From the NCBI GenBank assembly GCA_965238005.1, contig OZ250165.1:4224001-4288000 (forward strand): a DNA stretch of 64,000 bases. Reading direction: 5' to 3'. The notes beneath the pieces are model-generated. The model searched no databases. It saw nothing but the letters and a program-made list of their open reading frames with translations, and was not told where the DNA came from. This document shows, piece by piece, positions 30,058 through 43,089 of this stretch. This DNA is from Longimicrobiales bacterium (lineage in GTDB: Bacteria > Gemmatimonadota > Gemmatimonadetes > Longimicrobiales > Gaopeijiaceae). A program made the translations under genes and the position numbers. Every line of letters begins with the position of its first letter. Positions within the stretch are counted from its first letter, which is position 1.

Positions 30058-30087
30058 ACCTTTGTGTATACTCCAAGGTTCTAAGAT
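30058..30087 (+). promoter_or_regulatory. Third MerR-type operator upstream of the regulator gene
   Basis: ACCTTTGTG-TATA-CTCCAAGGT (30058-30079) followed by TAAGAT. Confidence 0.7.
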
Positions 30088-30115
30088 GCGTCGCGCTACA
30101 CTTGGAGGACACGAA

Positions 30116-30508
30116 ATGCGGATTGGAGAGCTCGCGAAGTCGGCGGGAGTGACTCCCGACACTATTAGGTATTACGAGCGTGAAGGACTGCTGCCTCTCG
30201 CAGACCGCACGCCGAGCGGTTACCGGGACTACGGGCTGGAGGTGGTCGACGACCTGCGATTCATCAAGAAGGCGCAAGCGCTAGGGCTCAAGCTGGGTGA
30301 CGTCCGCGAGGTCCTGGAAATCTCTGCGGGGGGGAAACCACCGTGCGAGCACGTGCGCGCGACCGTCAGCGCACGGCTCACGGAGGTAGAGCAGCGGCTA
30401 AAGGACCTCAGGGCGCTGCGCTCAACGCTGCGCGAGACGCTGGAACGCCTCGATCGTGCGCCGCCGCCAAAGGCAGGATGCCGCTGCGCGGTGATCGAAT
30501 CGGCTTAG
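30116..30508 (+). CDS. MerR-family heavy-metal-responsive regulator (ZntR/CadR-like)
   Basis: MRIGELAK...TIRYYER..LL, GYRDY, PPCEH and C-terminal CRC; RBS GGAGG. Confidence 0.92.
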   Translation: MRIGELAKSAGVTPDTIRYYEREGLLPLADRTPSGYRDYGLEVVDDLRFIKKAQALGLKLGDVREVLEISAGGKPPCEHVRATVSARLTEVEQRLKDLRALRSTLRETLERLDRAPPPKAGCRCAVIESA

Positions 30509-36679: not shown

Positions 36680-37450
36680 CTACGTCTTGATTTTGTAGCC
36701 GCGTTTGAACAACCGAACGTTCACACCGAAAAGAAACGCTCCGAGAATGAAGACGAGGGCCATGCTGAAAGGGACGTTGACATCAGAGACGCCCAGAAGC
36801 CCATACCGCATCCCGTTAATCATGAAAAGCAGGGGGTTCAAGACGGAGACAGTCTTGAGGAGGTCTGGGAGCATGTGGATGGAGTAAAACACCCCACCCA
36901 AGAAGGTGAGAGGAGTGAGCACAAAGCTGGAAAAGGTTTCCACGTGGTCGAACGTCTCCGCCCAGAGTCCCATCATCAACCCAATAGAGGAGAAAACCAG
37001 GGACACGAAGAACATGAAGTACACGAACACGAAAACGTTGGCCATTCCGACGGGAATAAAGAGGAACGAGACTAGCAGGGTAAGGATCCCCACGACGAAT
37101 CCTCTCATTACGCCCCCCAAAGTGAGCGCCAGTACCATTTCGAAATAAGAAAGGGGGGCAGTCAGTAATTCGGTGATATTGTTGAAGAACTTGGATATGA
37201 GTAGGGATAGGGAGGAATTGAAGTAGGAGTTCGTGATCACACTCATCATGATCAAGCCTGGGATCAGGAACTCTATGTACGACAGTCCATTTACCTCCGG
37301 AATCTGCGAACCGATGAACTTGCCGAACACGATGATATAGAGAACTGAGGAGATCACCGGCGCAACAATGGTCTGCGTGGTGGATTTGGTGAACTTCTTG
37401 GTTTCTCGGCCCAGCAGAGTCGCGAATCCCCTATAATTCGCCACGACCAA
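36680..37450 (-). CDS. ABC-2 type transporter permease (YadH-like)
   Basis: YIEFLIPGLIMMSVITNSY, PLTFLGGVFYS and NPL...GMRYG motifs; visibly lower GC. Confidence 0.88.
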   Translation of the reverse strand: MVVANYRGFATLLGRETKKFTKSTTQTIVAPVISSVLYIIVFGKFIGSQIPEVNGLSYIEFLIPGLIMMSVITNSYFNSSLSLLISKFFNNITELLTAPLSYFEMVLALTLGGVMRGFVVGILTLLVSFLFIPVGMANVFVFVYFMFFVSLVFSSIGLMMGLWAETFDHVETFSSFVLTPLTFLGGVFYSIHMLPDLLKTVSVLNPLLFMINGMRYGLLGVSDVNVPFSMALVFILGAFLFGVNVRLFKRGYKIKT

Positions 37451-38357
37451 TCTCCGTTAAGTCGATAAAGATGTCCTCCAGGTTGGACCTGGTCACTTCC
37501 TCCCTTTTTACCTCGAGTCCCGCTTTCTCGACATCGCGCAGTATTTCTGCCTTGCTGGCGTGCTCCTCACAGACGATTCGGATCTTGTTGTCATCCAGCA
37601 GGAACGCTTTGTATTTCGCGAGCGGTTGAGGGATGGCTTCTATCGGTTTTGTGAGCGTGATATCCAAGCTGGTCTTGTGTAGCTGCTCAAGCAGATTGTC
37701 CTTGTCATCAAGCGCAATGATGTGTCCGTGGTTGATGATGCCGATTCTCTTGGCTAATCGCTCCGCCTCCTCGATGTAGTGGGTCGTGAGCAGGATAGTG
37801 GTGCCTTGCTTGTTCAACTCCTGCATATGACGCCAAAGGCTGCGCCGCAGCTCCACATCGACACCAGCGGTAGGCTCATCAAGAATGAGGAGTTGGGGAT
37901 TGTGTACGAGGGCTCTTGCGATGAGCAGGCGTCTCTTCATCCCACCAGATAACTCTCTGACGTGCACTTCCCGTTTGGAGGCAAGATCAAACTGGTCCAG
38001 TAGCTCATCCACCCGTTTGTTCGCTTCACGGCGCCGTATGCCGAAGTATCAAGCATAAAACCGCAGAATCTCAGCCACAGTGAAGTAGTCGTCAAAATTG
38101 AACTCTTGTGGCACGAGACCAATTAATTGCCTGGCTTCCCGGTACTCCCCGACGACATCCTTCCCGAAGACCTTGACTTCCCCGTCTTCATAGGTGGTAA
38201 GGCCAGCGAGGATATTGATCGTCGTGCTTTTGCCGGCTCCGTTCGGTCCCAGGAACCCAAAAAACTCCCCGCCCTTCACCTCCATGGAGAAGTTGTCCAA
38301 CGCCCGCACGTCTCCGTAGGACTTGGTCAGTTTCCTGATGGATATTGCAGGTTCCAT
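37431..38357 (-). pseudogene. ABC transporter ATP-binding protein (YadG-like) with one in-frame TGA at 38049-38051
   Basis: GPNGAGKST...LRFYA*YFGI...LSGGMKRR, LDEPT and TTHY, all in one frame. Confidence 0.85.
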
Positions 38358-38389
38358 AGGCAAAGTGGCTCATCGTGAGTCACGGTGTC

Positions 38390-40192
38390 CTACCCCGCGC
38401 AGCACGACAGCTTCGCTACATCCTTGTCGAACGCCTGCGCCGCAAGCTTGATTCCCTCGGACAGCGTGAGGTAGGGATGGAACACCGATGTGAGGTTCTC
38501 GATTGTGAGTCCGAACTGGACGGCGAGGGCCAGCTCGGTAATCATCTCGCCCGCCTCGGAAGCCAGGATATGCGCTCCGACGATCTTCCGTGTGTTCGCG
38601 TCGGCCACGAGCTTGACGAAACCACGCGTGTCGCGCGCCGCAAGCGAGCGCGGCACATGCTCCAGCGGTAACTCTGCGGTCACTGGCTCCCTTCCCTGGA
38701 ACCCGATCTCCTCTTCCGTGAACCCGACCGACGCCACCGCTGGATCCGTGAACGTGACCTTGGGCAATGCTGTGAGATCGAACGGCACGGTATCGCCTGT
38801 GAGCGCGTTCTCGGCGGCTATCTTCCCGCCTAACGCCGCGACGTAGACGAACATTGGCTCACCCGTGACGTCACCGGCCGCGTAGATGTCAGGATTCGCG
38901 GTCTGAAGGTATTCGTTCACGGCGATCTCGCCCTTCTCCCCCAGGGTCACACCGACCTCATCGAGTCCGAACCCCTCGGTGTTGGCGCGCCGGCCCGTGG
39001 CCACCAAGAGCTGCTCGGCCATCAAGGTGCTGGCGCCGCCGTCCTCGCTGAAGTGTACCGTGTAACCCTCGTTCCGCTCGACTCGCTCGATCGTCACTCC
39101 CGGGTGGATTTGCATTCCCTCGGCTGCCAGATACTCGGCCAGCGCGTTCCCTATTGCCGCATCCTCGGCAGGGACGATCCGCGGCAACGCCTCGAGTACC
39201 GTGACCTGCACGCCGAGTCGCAAGAACATCTGGGCCAGCTCGAGCCCGACCGCGCTGGCTCCGATCACGATCAGCGAGGACGGCAGCGTTTCCAGAGCCA
39301 TGGCTGAGGTGCTGTCCAGATATCCCGCCTCCGCGAGCCCCGGTATCGGCGCCGCCCAGGGGGATGCCCCGGTGGTGATGACAAGCTTTCCAGCGGTGAC
39401 CTGGCGCCCGTCAGCCAGGGTGATGGATGTGCCGGAGGTCACCGTTGCCCGTTGCTCGAACAGGGTCACCGCCTCGTACGACTGCAACACGTCGCGATAC
39501 TTCGTCTCACGCATTCCGGTGACCAGTGCGTCTTTGTGATCCCGCACAACTGGCCAATCCGGCTGGCCGTCCGTGGCGGCAATGCCCTGGAACGGGTGAT
39601 GGGTGCGGCGGTGGTTCGCTTCGGCCGCGCGGATCAAGGTCTTTGACGGCACGCACCCCACGTTCACACAGGTGCCCCCCAAGGTACCCAGCTCGGCCAT
39701 CGCCACCCGGGCGCCCAGCTCCGCACCCTTGATCGCGGCGCCGAAGCCCGCCGACCCACCGCCGACGATCACGAGATCGAAGTCACCGTCTCCCCGCGAG
39801 ATTGGCGTGATCGCACCGCGATCCGACCCTGCCCGGATGAAATCACCAACCCCCTCCATCGCCTCGGTGCCCTTTAAGCGCTTGATGTAGTAATCAGGGG
39901 CCTTCAGGAACACTTCTCGGCAATACGGACAACCGCAATAGGGGACTTCCTCTCCGGCGTACTCGAACGTGAAGGTCAACTCTGGTGTTTTTTCCGCTAA
40001 GCAGGTCGGGCATACCACCAGATCCTTGATGCGTCGGACGTGTTGCTCGGGGTCAGGGGCGAACTCGTCGGCGCAATCCTGGCAACAGAAATAGTGTTCG
40101 GTGCCGTCGTGACTGTATGTAGCCGCCTTCTCTTTGCTGATTCCCAGTCTGACCAGGGAACAGCCGCAGTAGGAGCAAATGAGCGTTTTCAT
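38390..40192 (-). CDS. merA: Mercuric reductase with tandem N-terminal YHS/TRASH-like Cys-rich domains
   Basis: GGGSAG, GGTCVNVGCVPSK, FHPYLTLSEG and C-terminal SCCAG; N-terminus CSYCGC..YFCCQDC..CPTC..YCGCPYC. Confidence 0.93.
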   Translation of the reverse strand: MKTLICSYCGCSLVRLGISKEKAATYSHDGTEHYFCCQDCADEFAPDPEQHVRRIKDLVVCPTCLAEKTPELTFTFEYAGEEVPYCGCPYCREVFLKAPDYYIKRLKGTEAMEGVGDFIRAGSDRGAITPISRGDGDFDLVIVGGGSAGFGAAIKGAELGARVAMAELGTLGGTCVNVGCVPSKTLIRAAEANHRRTHHPFQGIAATDGQPDWPVVRDHKDALVTGMRETKYRDVLQSYEAVTLFEQRATVTSGTSITLADGRQVTAGKLVITTGASPWAAPIPGLAEAGYLDSTSAMALETLPSSLIVIGASAVGLELAQMFLRLGVQVTVLEALPRIVPAEDAAIGNALAEYLAAEGMQIHPGVTIERVERNEGYTVHFSEDGGASTLMAEQLLVATGRRANTEGFGLDEVGVTLGEKGEIAVNEYLQTANPDIYAAGDVTGEPMFVYVAALGGKIAAENALTGDTVPFDLTALPKVTFTDPAVASVGFTEEEIGFQGREPVTAELPLEHVPRSLAARDTRGFVKLVADANTRKIVGAHILASEAGEMITELALAVQFGLTIENLTSVFHPYLTLSEGIKLAAQAFDKDVAKLSCCAG

Positions 40193-40291
40193 GCTTCACC
40201 TCGATTAGATGCGTGGCCAATGCGACCAGGCCGATCAGGACCCTTCGCCCGGAGCTCCTGGCTCCGGCTCGGGCCTGAGCGGGCAGGGCGG

Positions 40292-40598
40292 CTAATCGAA
40301 TTCGTCCAGCCCCGTCACCGGGAGGCTATCGCCAAGCCCCCATGGAAGGAAGAAGCTCAGGCTCAGTGCGTTTCCTGCCGGGAGGTTGCGCCCGGAGATC
40401 GGGACCCTAGCCCCAAGCTCGAGGAACCCTGATCCGATCGGCATGCCCAGGGTCGGAAACACTTCGAGCATGCTCCTGCGAGCGGACGTGAGGGCGCCGG
40501 AGATCCCGTGCGGGACGGTACAGCTCCCCTGAGCGAGGAGGCCCGACGGGGACAAGAGGGCGGGCAGCAGCAAGCAGCCAAGGGCCGCCGTGGTCGCC
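40292..40598 (-). pseudogene. Remnant of an exported / outer-membrane protein with a large internal deletion
   Basis: Signal-like segment (AALGCLLLPALL..LLAQ) joined to a barrel-like C-terminus (ELGARVPISGRNLPAG..LSLSF); no clear start codon. Confidence 0.4.
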
Positions 40599-41069
40599 CT
40601 AGTCGTGACGATGCTCTGCGTCCTCGGCGTCATGATCGTGATCGGCACCCGGATCCCCTTCGGCCTGATCCCCATCGCCGGACAGGGCCTGACCCTGAAT
40701 GATCTGCTCGACCGTCGCTTCGAAGCCGGTCATCCGCGTCAGCTCACCGAGAAACTCCTCCGGCGAAGTGACGGAGGCGTCGTATACGACCGAGGCCGCA
40801 CCCGATGGGTACGAGACCCTCGCATCCTCGACTCCCTCCACGCGTCGTAGGGCCACACGGGCCGCTGCGGAGCAACCTACTCAGGTCATCCCCGTCACGG
40901 TGAGGTCGGCGGTCACCAGGTTCGGAATGGTGGCGGTCATCTCCTGGGCCGCCATATCCCCCTCACCCTGGCCGGGCATATCCATGTTCCCGTGAGCGTC
41001 GCTCATCAACTGAGACACGACGAGGACGCCCAGGACCGTGAACGCGCCGGCAAGCTCGAGCTTCTTCAT
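40599..41069 (-). CDS. merP: MerP-like periplasmic HMA protein, probable selenoprotein (GMT-U-VGC)
   Basis: ORFs 40881..41069 and 40599..40856 are in one frame; the TGA at 40881-40883 falls in VTGMT*VGC...VEGVEDARVSY...VVYD. Confidence 0.8.
40847..40883 (-). other. Candidate bacterial SECIS element
   Basis: UGA-GUAG-GUUGCUCCGCAGC-GGCC-CGUGU-GGCC-CUAC: stems GUAG/CUAC and GGCC/GGCC, apical loop with GU starting 21 nt after the UGA. Confidence 0.55.
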
Positions 41070-41088: not shown

Positions 41089-41430
41089 TCAGAGTACCCA
41101 GACCGACCACGTCGGATACGTGCCGAATATCACTGCGATCCCAGTCGCCATCCACAGCAGGCTCCTCATCCATTTCCGCGCTTTGGGATCCGCGCACACC
41201 TTGCCGGGCTCACAGGCCATCTGGTCTTCCCGGTAGAGCATGTAGAATCCGGCCCCGAGCATTACGACCGTCGCGATCAGGAAGTAGGGCCTGAGAGGTT
41301 CGAATCTGGCGGAAAGGCCGGCTCCGGATATACCAACGGTTACGGCGAGGAGGGGGCCGGCGCAGCAGAGGGCGGAGGTGAAGGCCGCCCCGACTCCGCC
41401 GACGGCCGTTAAGATCGTCTTGCCTATCAT
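41089..41430 (-). CDS. merT: Mercuric transport protein MerT
   Basis: ALCCAGP in TM1, EPLRPY, loop CEPGKVC, three TM helices. Confidence 0.92.
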   Translation of the reverse strand: MIGKTILTAVGGVGAAFTSALCCAGPLLAVTVGISGAGLSARFEPLRPYFLIATVVMLGAGFYMLYREDQMACEPGKVCADPKARKWMRSLLWMATGIAVIFGTYPTWSVWVL

Positions 41431-41486: not shown

Positions 41487-43089
41487 GAGTCTGCGCCGCA
41501 GAAGCACAGCTGACTGAGCCGAATGGTCATCGAGCCGTCCGCGGCGAGGCGGATCCGGGTGATTGGGAGGTTGAGGACTTGTGTCTGCGACGGATCGGGA
41601 GAGCGGAATGGATGCGTTGGGGGGGGGCAAGAGAGCTACGAGAGCCCTCGCGCCGGCAGATGCGGGTGAACCCTCGTGCAGTCATGCCGCCTGAAGGGTG
41701 TGCAGCCGCTTCACATTGAGTGCCAGGCACACGAGGGTCCACTCGGCCCGGACCTTCTCGAGGCCCCGGAAGCTGAATCGTCGAAAGCCCATCACTTCCT
41801 TGATCCAACCGATGGGCGCCTCGGCCTGCGACTTTCGCCGTGCGTAGCGTCTGCGGCCATCTTCGCTCGCCAGCTTCTCCGCCATGCGGACTTTCGCCGG
41901 ATATTCCTCCTTGTCAACCGTGGGGGCGGCCTTGCCCTCCCGGGCCAGCGCCACATACCCGTCGATGTCTCGCTCTTCCAGTTCCTCGAGATCCCGCTCG
42001 TTGCAATAGCCCGTGTCCGCCAGCACCTGCGCCGGCGTCTCGCCGTACGCTTGCGCCACCGCGTCGACCATGGGCACCAGCTGGCCCTGGTCGCTCGCGT
42101 TGTCCGTCACCTCGGCCCCGACCACCAGCTGGTTCTCCCCCTCCACGACCGTCTGTGCGTTGTAGCACTGCTGGAACCCCTCCGAACTCGTCTTCATGAT
42201 CCGGCTCTCAGGGTCCGTGAAGTTGCTCTGCGCCGCCTCGTCCGGCTCTCCGTACTCCCGCTTGTAGGGCCTGCCGCCCTTCGGGTTGCGCGTCTGCCCC
42301 GGCTTGCGGCCCCGTGCGTCGTCCGCCGCTCTCTGCTCGGCTTCCAGGCGCGCCTTCGCCTCCCGGATCGCCGCCAGCCGGTCCTCGCGCCGCTTGAGCT
42401 CCTCCGGCACCTCGTCTCCGCATGCTTCCTCGCCGTAGCGCTCGTCTTCCGCTTCGTCCACCGCCTCGGCCCTCTCCAACAGCCCCCGGATCTCCGCCTC
42501 CAGCCGAGGCTCCCCGGTCACCATCCGGCCGTAGCTCATCGCCTTGCGCTTGTTCGCGTTCGCCCGAACCTTCGTCCCGTCCACCGACACCCTGCCAAGC
42601 CCCGCCAGCCCCAAGGCCCGCGCGAGCATCACCACCTCCACAAACACCGCCCGGAAATCCCCGAGATGGCGCTTGCGGAACTCGCACAGCGTCCGGTGCT
42701 TCGGGAAGTTCTCCGCCGCCAGCATCCGAAACGCGACATCCTCCTCCAGCTTCCTCGCCATCTTCCGCGACGAGAAGGTGCCCGTCGCATACGCGTAGAT
42801 CAGCACCTTGACCATCATCCGAGGGTCGTACGGCGAGTTGCGCCGCCCGTCCCCCCGGTACCGCCCGTAGAACGCGCTCAGCTCCACCGCGTCCACCAGG
42901 TCGCTCACATGGTGCGCCAAATGACCCTCCGACACCCACTCCCGAAGATCCGGAGGCAGCAACAACATCTGCTCCGGATCGTACGGTCGAAATGTCGTTC
43001 CCATTCACCCCCCTCGGTGATCCGCAAGCCTTCCCAATGCCTTCGCTACCACCAAAGATAGCCGCCGCAGGGTTCTGCGGCGCAGACTC
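41487..43089 (-). mobile_element. IS1182-family insertion sequence, 1603 bp
   Basis: Perfect 17-bp terminal inverted repeats GAGTCTGCGCCGCAGAA (41487-41503, 43073-43089); CTAG direct repeats at 41483-41486 and 43090-43093. Confidence 0.92.
41682..43004 (-). CDS. IS1182-family DDE transposase
   Basis: YDPRMMVKVLIYAY, SSRK, DGTKVRANA, TDPESRIM, YNAQ, ADTGY and EAPIGWIK motifs; intact. Confidence 0.93.
   Translation of the reverse strand: MGTTFRPYDPEQMLLLPPDLREWVSEGHLAHHVSDLVDAVELSAFYGRYRGDGRRNSPYDPRMMVKVLIYAYATGTFSSRKMARKLEEDVAFRMLAAENFPKHRTLCEFRKRHLGDFRAVFVEVVMLARALGLAGLGRVSVDGTKVRANANKRKAMSYGRMVTGEPRLEAEIRGLLERAEAVDEAEDERYGEEACGDEVPEELKRREDRLAAIREAKARLEAEQRAADDARGRKPGQTRNPKGGRPYKREYGEPDEAAQSNFTDPESRIMKTSSEGFQQCYNAQTVVEGENQLVVGAEVTDNASDQGQLVPMVDAVAQAYGETPAQVLADTGYCNERDLEELEERDIDGYVALAREGKAAPTVDKEEYPAKVRMAEKLASEDGRRRYARRKSQAEAPIGWIKEVMGFRRFSFRGLEKVRAEWTLVCLALNVKRLHTLQAA

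Follow-up and report, generated by a model that had tools for sequence, protein, structure and literature searches.

A putative selenocysteine-containing MerP-like protein encoded between merT and merA in a Longimicrobiales bacterium

A gene lying between merT and merA in the mer operon of a Longimicrobiales bacterium (Gemmatimonadota; GenBank assembly GCA_965238005.1, contig OZ250165.1) is very probably a real and conserved selenoprotein gene that standard annotation truncates, its product being one intact MerP-like protein in which an in-frame UGA would be read as selenocysteine (Sec). The window analysed here is a stretch of 64,000 nucleotides, positions 4,224,001 to 4,288,000 of the forward strand of that contig, and positions are given within it unless preceded by a genome, contig or locus handle. 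On the combined evidence of reading frame, protein fold, UGA conservation, downstream hairpin and Sec machinery, this reading is assigned a probability of roughly 0.88.

The gene occupies the minus strand as a single frame of 156 codons (41069..40602), opening with an ATG at 41069 that is preceded by GGAGAG and closing with a TAG at 40601..40599; its sole in-frame break is a TGA at 40883..40881 (TCA at 40881-40883 of the plus strand), codon 63. Under translation table 11 the frame falls into two open reading frames (ORFs), 40881..41069 (62 aa) and 40599..40856 (85 aa), the latter from a false GTG start. The protein begins MKKLELAGAFTVLGVLVVSQL..., continues through a Met/His/Asp-rich linker and an HMA domain, and ends in an Asp/His-rich tail; around the UGA the read-through product is ...DLTVTGMT-U-VGCSAAARVALRRVEGV..., the stretch right after U63 being VGCSAAARVALRRVEG. 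The TGA stands at the first Cys of the GMTCxxC motif, so that the two-Cys loop typical of HMA domains is represented here by a Sec variant, GMT-U-VGC. A preliminary description of this DNA had joined the two ORFs into one frame broken by a single TGA and had placed that TGA at the first Cys of an otherwise intact HMA domain. Translation agrees, the Pfam HMA match (PF00403; residues 56-115, 37.5 bits against a cut-off of 24.8) crosses the TGA, and the coordinates, motif and hairpin position given there all proved correct. TGA is the commonest stop genome-wide, ending 2321 of 4119 ORFs of at least 300 codons, and the genetic code is therefore standard and not reassigned.

An AlphaFold2 model of the read-through protein, built on eight homologues, comprises an N-terminal helix (residues 5-22), a disordered linker and a beta-alpha-beta-beta-alpha-beta domain (residues 51-125; predicted local distance difference test score, pLDDT, ~95), with U63 located in the beta1-alpha1 loop. 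The helix is hydrophobic, and no obvious cleavage motif was seen by eye. In Foldseek searches the HMA domain superposes on MerP (1osd, TMt 0.93) and HMA7 (3dxs, TMt 0.92), and a profile of the clade to which the window gene belongs matches the MerP structures 1afi/1osd at E 6e-12.

Conservation of the UGA and the selenocysteine machinery

The read-through protein was searched against 60 related genomes, and 30 loci were then scanned in six frames. The best matches each carry an in-frame TGA, and GMT-U-xGC was found in at least seven of the 60 genomes, all from the same taxonomic family (G002, G010, G013, G022, G023, G026 and G034); seven is a minimum, as further matches flagged with one TGA lie outside the 30 scanned loci. 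More distant relatives have GMTCGGC at that motif. The seven genomic U-form proteins are 31-41% identical to the window protein, all of them share the N-terminal helix, and their starts are preceded by Shine-Dalgarno-like sequences. A metagenome scan for V-[TS]-G-M-T-TGA-x-G-C returned at least 120 stretches, from which an open-frame filter and duplicate removal left at least 97 unique U-type sequences, including the eight genomic ones. The window's clade comprises at least 31 of these, eight genomic (with the window's own) and at least 23 metagenomic; its UGA-carrying homologues span 31-49% protein identity to the window protein, the nearest among the matches listed being L153 and L223 (49%).

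The sequence beyond the UGA behaves as coding DNA. Over the 50 codons past the TGA, 28 clade sequences contain no in-frame stop, against 53 and 37 stops in the other two frames, and their pairwise divergence at codon positions 1/2/3 is 0.31/0.24/0.52. When 1.84 billion representative proteins were searched with a profile, the matches included five full-length, single-domain proteins (P0017, P0073, P0143, P0097 and P0128; 33-45% identity) with the same architecture as the window protein and Cys at the U column; P0072, a two-domain protein, was left out of the Cys/U alignment. To judge from this alignment, U and Cys form a classical Sec/Cys pairing. The preliminary description had proposed a search for homologues with TGA or Cys at this column and had named a TGA unique to the strain as the outcome that would speak against Sec. 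Both kinds of homologue exist, TGA in seven genomes and at least 23 metagenome sequences and Cys in full-length proteins, and the occurrence of TGA at the same column across family genomes and metagenomes shows that it is not a strain-specific nonsense change. Further HMA matches with one in-frame TGA occur at G010:C191:385-597, G021:C38:24749-24964, G056:C74:15900-16169, G053:C2:5679-5909, G019:C585:1434-1712 and G013:C17:289066-289323, and these may be additional Sec-HMA paralogues.

The source genome is a complete-looking 4.84-Mb single contig. It encodes SelA (463 bits), SelB (328 bits, or 355 with neighbouring frame pieces; cut-off 242), SelD (371 bits; C1:578521-579441, outside the window) and a tRNA-Sec, so that the four components selA, selB, selC and selD that had been suggested for checking are all accounted for. 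SelD has its own in-frame TGA (GAG-U-ASKLG), followed by two hairpins with the loops CAUGU and GUC, which are compatible with, but not decisive for, the RNA recognised by the SelB of this organism. SelA was detected in 37 of 61 genomes overall and in seven of the eight with the U form, the one without a SelA match being G010 (88% complete, 830 contigs); in the sister family f2, which has Cys forms only, SelA was found in none of 12 genomes. This co-occurrence is given without a P value because the relatives are not independent.

The hairpin downstream of the UGA

The clade consensus past the UGA, ...GCG GCC CGU GUG GCC GUG..., forms a 6-bp stem with a 5-nt loop, CGUGU or CGGGU, which starts 21 nt after the UGA in 21 of the 31 sequences. 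In the window copy the inner stem is GGCC (nt 21-24) paired with GGCC (nt 30-33), and the loop starts 21 nt after the A of the UGA. The preliminary description had noted a hairpin at once past the UGA with a GU-containing loop 21 nt on, which is confirmed as GGCC-CGUGU-GGCC, and had suggested covariation analysis as a check. In the 31-sequence alignment 97.3% of cells are standard-paired; sliding the 3' partner by 1-3 columns lowers this share to 28-70%, and the covariation score was reached by none of 500 shuffles. Three compensatory cells occur at two pairs (G-C to A-U twice, C-G to U-A once), and RNAalifold independently recovers the inner four pairs; the hairpin is thus conserved in homologues. 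Pairs 21-33 and 24-30 link third codon positions, and conservation at those four sites reaches 90-97%; at the other 19 downstream third positions it has a mean of 55% and a maximum of 90%. Protein constraint alone can hardly account for such synonymous-site conservation in the stem.

Clades differ in the amino-acid sequence past the UxxC, but in every one of them a hairpin of its own occupies the same region, with loops such as CGUGA or CGGUC in clades other than that of the window. The U-type set used for comparison consists, among the matches listed, of 97 unique sequences in at least six clades, and the control set of Cys-type HMA genes of unrelated taxa, obtained by a scan with a Cys-codon pattern. 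A perfect hairpin of at least 6 bp in the expected interval for a selenocysteine insertion sequence (SECIS) was found in 78 of these 97 U-type sequences and in 41 of 112 Cys-type sequences; in the subsets with a G+C content of at least 0.6 the counts were 54/65 and 30/56, respectively. A G within the first two loop bases was present in 90/97 U-type versus 42/112 Cys-type sequences.

The SECIS of E. coli fdhF is a SelB-dependent hairpin situated just 3' of the UGA within the coding sequence, with a G and a U early in the apical loop. The window hairpin resembles it in its place 3' of the UGA and in the G/U of its apical loop, whereas sequence and spacing differ. An Rfam scan gave no relevant family, only two chance-level matches; to our knowledge, Rfam has no general bacterial SECIS model. 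A different hairpin directly after the UGA (nt 4-12/19-27), chosen by RNAalifold for the five-member subclade of the window, was rejected as the family structure: over all 31 sequences 76.7% of its cells are paired, and 171 of 500 shuffles did as well.

The mer operon and its relation to known families

The features of the locus are collected in Table 1. The preliminary assignment to a mer operon is supported by a MerT match upstream (PF02411, 69 bits) and a MerA match downstream (TIGR02053, 551 bits), the gene beginning 20 nt downstream of merT and lying ~400 nt upstream of merA, that is, at the position between these two genes that is expected of merP. Among seven homologous loci, MerT is directly upstream in six. 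Two have MerA downstream, in one case with an HMA domain at its N-terminus; one locus includes MerR and a different one a MerB-like ORF.

Table 1. Features of the mer locus in the window.
Feature	Position	Strand	Evidence or description
DDE transposase (insertion sequence element), ~250 nt upstream of merT	41682..43004	-	DDE_Tnp_1 66.7 bits, DUF772
merT, 113 aa; Cys-Cys pair in first helix, later C-x6-C pair	41089..41430	-	PF02411 69.4 bits
Predicted Sec-containing MerP-like gene	40602..41069	-	Translation, Pfam HMA 37.5 bits, AlphaFold2 model, Foldseek
In-frame UGA, codon 63, predicted to be read as Sec; putative first ligand of U-x-x-C metal site	40881..40883	-	UGA conservation, Cys column
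SECIS-like hairpin	40849..40865	-	Stem nt 19-24/30-35 after the U of the UGA, loop CGUGU nt 25-29
merA, 600 aa; CVNVGC, C-terminal CC	38390..40192	-	TIGR02053 550.7 bits, cut-off 454

Around the operon lies a metal island. Besides a P-type ATPase that contains HMA domains, it holds a regulator of the MerR family, an RND pump, an outer-membrane factor and an ABC-2 transporter. The MerR-family gene closest to the operon (30062-30505, +) is beside a P-type ATPase. Within the same genus as the source organism, the genome G001 (95% complete) has only a weak match (E 4.7e-5, in an 834-aa frame) and G002 a copy that is 35% identical, the window copy being closest to metagenome sequences; this distribution fits an accessory, horizontally moving operon. 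The MerA of the window has in its residues 1-110 a Cys-rich YHS-like domain (PF04945, 28 bits, below the cut-off of 30.3) instead of the usual HMA-type NmerA, with the motifs CSYCGC, CCQDC, CPTC and CGCPYC and no TGA; YHS-domain proteins are a catalogued selenoprotein family. Directly downstream of merA, an ABC transporter ATPase appears to be split into two ORFs (38363..38049 and 38012..37431, minus strand), adjoined by an ABC-2 permease (36680-37450, minus strand); the G+C content of this stretch is 0.49-0.55 compared with 0.63-0.72 around it, and it is possibly a foreign, decaying insert. An ORF of 127 aa overlapping the gap between the Sec-merP gene and merA (40292-40675, minus strand) had no Pfam match. 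It was considered as a relative of a small conserved ORF of ~95-108 aa that follows the Sec-merP gene in three related genomes (L019:208-489, L021:1172-1468 and L022:1191-1514, all minus strand), and the two proved unrelated; the small ORF is absent from the window. Its sequence, …IELVYFEGCPNA…GSPTVLVDG…AMACR.DG.PS…, looks thioredoxin/glutaredoxin-like by eye and has no Pfam match at E 0.001. Elsewhere in the genome, outside the window, two dense tRNA arrays (C1:1035994-1037821 and C1:4451264-4455247) hold 17 and 18 genes in ~2-4 kb, one tRNA among them being left untyped by ARAGORN (two-base anticodon 'ca'). Dense tRNA arrays are often of mobile-element origin.

Public protein records bear out the expectation that standard annotation would split the gene: a collection of 5.8 billion proteins holds only four C-terminal fragments of 92-102 aa, starting past the TGA, one of which is named 'copper chaperone CopZ' (JGI). 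No NCBIfam cut-off is reached by any member of the window's clade. With MerP (TIGR02052; PDB 1afi, 1osd) the window protein has in common the HMA fold, the GMTxxxC loop and the gene position between merT and merA; it differs in having Sec for the first Cys, an anchor-like helix, a Met/His-rich linker of ~30 residues and an acidic, His-rich tail, in contrast to the short cleaved signal peptide of MerP. The best curated model is NF041115, 'UxxU_metal_bind', at 63.5 bits for the window protein and 63.5-85.8 bits across the clade, all below the cut-off of 95; both carry Sec in the metal loop of an HMA-type domain, but NF041115 is UxxU with two Sec and the window protein UxxC with one. NF045683, 'MerT/CopZ fusion-like heavy metal transport selenoprotein', gave 31.5 bits against a cut-off of 375. 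A UxxC motif, which we take from the protein family to belong to an HMA-type domain, is shared with a P-type ATPase selenoprotein, where it lies in an N-terminal pump domain and not in a stand-alone partner of MerT.

This UxxC P-type (E1-E2) ATPase is listed with ABB15669.1 in two reviews (PMC9312934, PMC13188914) and also appears in the tables of PMC1976440 and PMC2398784; together with MerT-like selenoproteins it is tabulated in these four sources and occurs in the Haft preprint (10.1101/2022.07.06.499078). The reviews, of 2022 and 2026, enter NF041115 under 'putative mercuric reductase / metal-binding protein' (PMC9312934, PMC13188914), and the 2026 text contains none of the words MerP, HMA and PF00403. 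NF045683 and the MerT-family selenoproteins, as presented in the preprint (10.1101/2022.07.06.499078), place selenium in the Hg uptake path with cooperating MerT and HMA modules, as in the window, where in contrast to the fusion an all-Cys MerT and the HMA protein are separate genes. A 'Mercuric transport protein MerP' selenoprotein from the 2008 GOS survey was considered as a precedent for this family; it consists of two identical 33-residue read fragments (...AGT-U-CQSG...) which have no recognisable GMTUxxC or HMA context, and is a weak precedent that does not belong to this family (PMC2398784). Full-text literature searches did not bring up any account of a Sec MerP belonging to a mer operon. 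The preliminary description had been cautious about novelty, aptly so, since computational catalogues already contain HMA metal sites with Sec (NF041115, NF045683, UxxC P-type ATPase); no new category is opened, and the window gene's clade is a widespread but poorly annotated one of this already catalogued general kind.

Other clades of the U-type set extend the range of architectures. In clade E, the metagenome sequence L180 encodes a signal-peptide MerP with UGA at the first Cys that passes TIGR02052 (99.2 against 92.55) and, by this score, is a canonical MerP in Sec form; the clade E hairpin has an 8-bp stem and the loop CGUGAA, 17 nt after the UGA. Clade B (L126, L128, L138 and at least 25 further unique metagenome sequences) is a very abundant, cytosolic-looking HMA protein of 75 residues, MADSKELVFSVTGMT-U-GGCEREVKQALERLAGVK…, which reaches at most 56.8 bits with any NCBIfam model (cut-off 95); its hairpin has an invariant 8-bp stem and the loop GGA, 32 nt after the UGA. 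The metagenome sequences L143 and L187 encode exported proteins with two tandem HMA domains, each with GMT-U-GGC, and are predicted double selenoproteins, with a hairpin of their own, GGGGGUC-CGUGA-GACCCUC, after each UGA.

Competing explanations and proposed function

Several observations weigh against the reading of this gene as a functional, Sec-containing MerP. The stem of the window copy consists of four G-C pairs, a C·C mismatch and a G·U pair, compared with the 6 bp of its clade, and the mismatch, at pair 20-34, is shared with the four closest relatives, these copies accounting for all five unpaired cells of the alignment. The folding energy of the window sequence is no better than that of shuffles (minimum free energy, MFE, z +0.78 and +1.0), the clade median z is +0.22, and MFE z separates Sec-type (median -0.52) only weakly from Cys-type sequences (-0.11); since shuffled G+C-rich coding sequence is no less stably folded than the native one, folding energy is uninformative here and conservation was therefore relied on. 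The stem codons encode A-A/T-A-R-V-A/V, and Cys homologues keep a similar peptide (TAR-V/L-A/V-L), that is, they conserve the motif as protein, so that part of the nucleotide conservation is protein-driven. The clade sequences are moreover related, and their counts are not independent. As regards function, the window protein reaches only 39.1 bits against the cut-off of 92.55 for the MerP equivalog TIGR02052 (39-45 bits for clade members), its N-terminal helix is anchor-like and lacks an evident cleaved signal peptide, and its Met/His-rich linker would fit Cu(I) as well. No merR adjoins the operon, an insertion sequence lies upstream of merT, and the gap of ~400 nt between the Sec-merP stop and the merA start (40193-40601) is unusually long. 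Lastly, the literature searched gave no experimental selenium incorporation for this or any other HMA selenoprotein.

Of the alternatives that deny Sec altogether, the view that the locus is a Cys-type merP turned into a pseudogene by a recent nonsense change of TGC/TGT to TGA would agree with the insertion sequence adjoining the operon and with the decay seen in the island as a split ABC ATPase gene. It is refuted by conservation and thus extremely improbable: the same TGA recurs in homologues of 31-49% identity, in at least seven other genomes and at least 23 metagenome sequences, whose divergence excludes that they are assembly copies of one sequence, and the downstream frame is intact with a coding substitution pattern. 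Were the UGA instead an ordinary stop, the locus would yield a 62-residue membrane peptide, with the 85-residue C-terminal piece translated separately from GTG 40856 or not at all. Table 11 produces exactly these two ORFs, public gene callers report the C-terminal piece only, and the window hairpin is the weakest of its clade; yet the HMA domain straddles the UGA, with beta1 before and alpha1 after it, the GTG 'start' is part of the hairpin loop and has no conserved equivalent in the relatives, 31 sequences preserve the UGA together with both halves, and the Cys homologues are single full-length proteins, all of which makes termination at this codon very unlikely. Readthrough by a near-cognate or suppressor tRNA inserting Cys or Trp, and not by Sec-tRNA, is conceivable in that low-level Cys/Trp insertion at UGA takes place under selenium scarcity. 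The genome nevertheless has a complete Sec system, as found in seven of the eight U-form genomes, a conserved hairpin with a G-containing loop stands at SECIS distance, and Cys is the homologous residue at this position in related proteins, so that decoding of this sort has very little probability.

The main functional rival accepts a true HMA selenoprotein and concerns its ligand, which would be copper or another soft metal and not Hg(II) destined for MerT: the protein might buffer Cu(I), Ag(I) or Cd(II), or hold Hg as an inert selenium complex. The Met/His/Asp-rich linker and tail recall periplasmic copper proteins, and the wider metal island, with its HMA P-type ATPase, MerR-family regulator, RND pump and outer-membrane factor, the score below the MerP equivalog cut-off and the CopZ name of the JGI fragment can all be read in the same sense. 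Against this stand the location of the gene directly downstream of merT in the window as in six of the seven homologous loci, which is the classical merP position, and the presence of merA, merR or a merB-like ORF nearby. A ligand other than Hg(II) for MerT is accordingly regarded as unlikely, though deserving consideration.

For a Sec-containing MerP working with MerT, the following mechanism is proposed. SelB with Sec-tRNA(Sec) would read UGA codon 63 as Sec, guided by the CGUGU hairpin 21 nt downstream, and the MerP-like, HMA-fold product would use its N-terminal helix as a tether to the inner membrane and expose its domain to the periplasm, a topology suggested because Lys/Arg residues precede the helix in all members. 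The hydrophobic character of the N-terminal helix, together with the operon context, likewise suggests a periplasmic location and a role in Hg scavenging. The Sec63-x-x-Cys66 loop would then bind incoming Hg(II) by selenolate-thiolate chelation and transfer the ion to the Cys-Cys pair of MerT, which would hand it on to MerA for reduction to Hg(0). Selenols have a low pKa and high nucleophilicity, and Hg is bound more tightly by selenium than by sulfur; this chemistry would favour Hg(II) capture and ligand exchange. Computation shows the structure of the gene, the conserved UGA and hairpin, the Cys/Sec pairing, the Sec machinery, the HMA fold and the operon context; we infer actual Sec insertion, the topology, Hg as the metal and any kinetic or affinity gain from selenium.

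Because gene callers split the gene, only C-terminal fragments are public and no NCBIfam cut-off is reached, the mer operons of these lineages seem to lack merP; a clade-specific model would mend that annotation. The literature searched contains no bench test of any HMA or MerP selenoprotein, and the locus offers a clean natural test case: a merT / Sec-merP / merA operon occurs together with the full Sec machinery, and Cys homologues found in nature can serve for comparison. It is tentatively suggested, at somewhat less than even odds, that a whole, largely unannotated radiation of UxxC HMA proteins, including the membrane-tethered MerP clade, the 75-residue cytosolic clade, the canonical-MerP clade and the tandem double-Sec forms, may render the uptake and detoxification of Hg dependent on selenium in numerous environmental bacteria. 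In these bacteria the selenolate would capture Hg(II) faster or more tightly than any thiol MerP, and the selenium and mercury cycles may be coupled at the level of the resistance operon.

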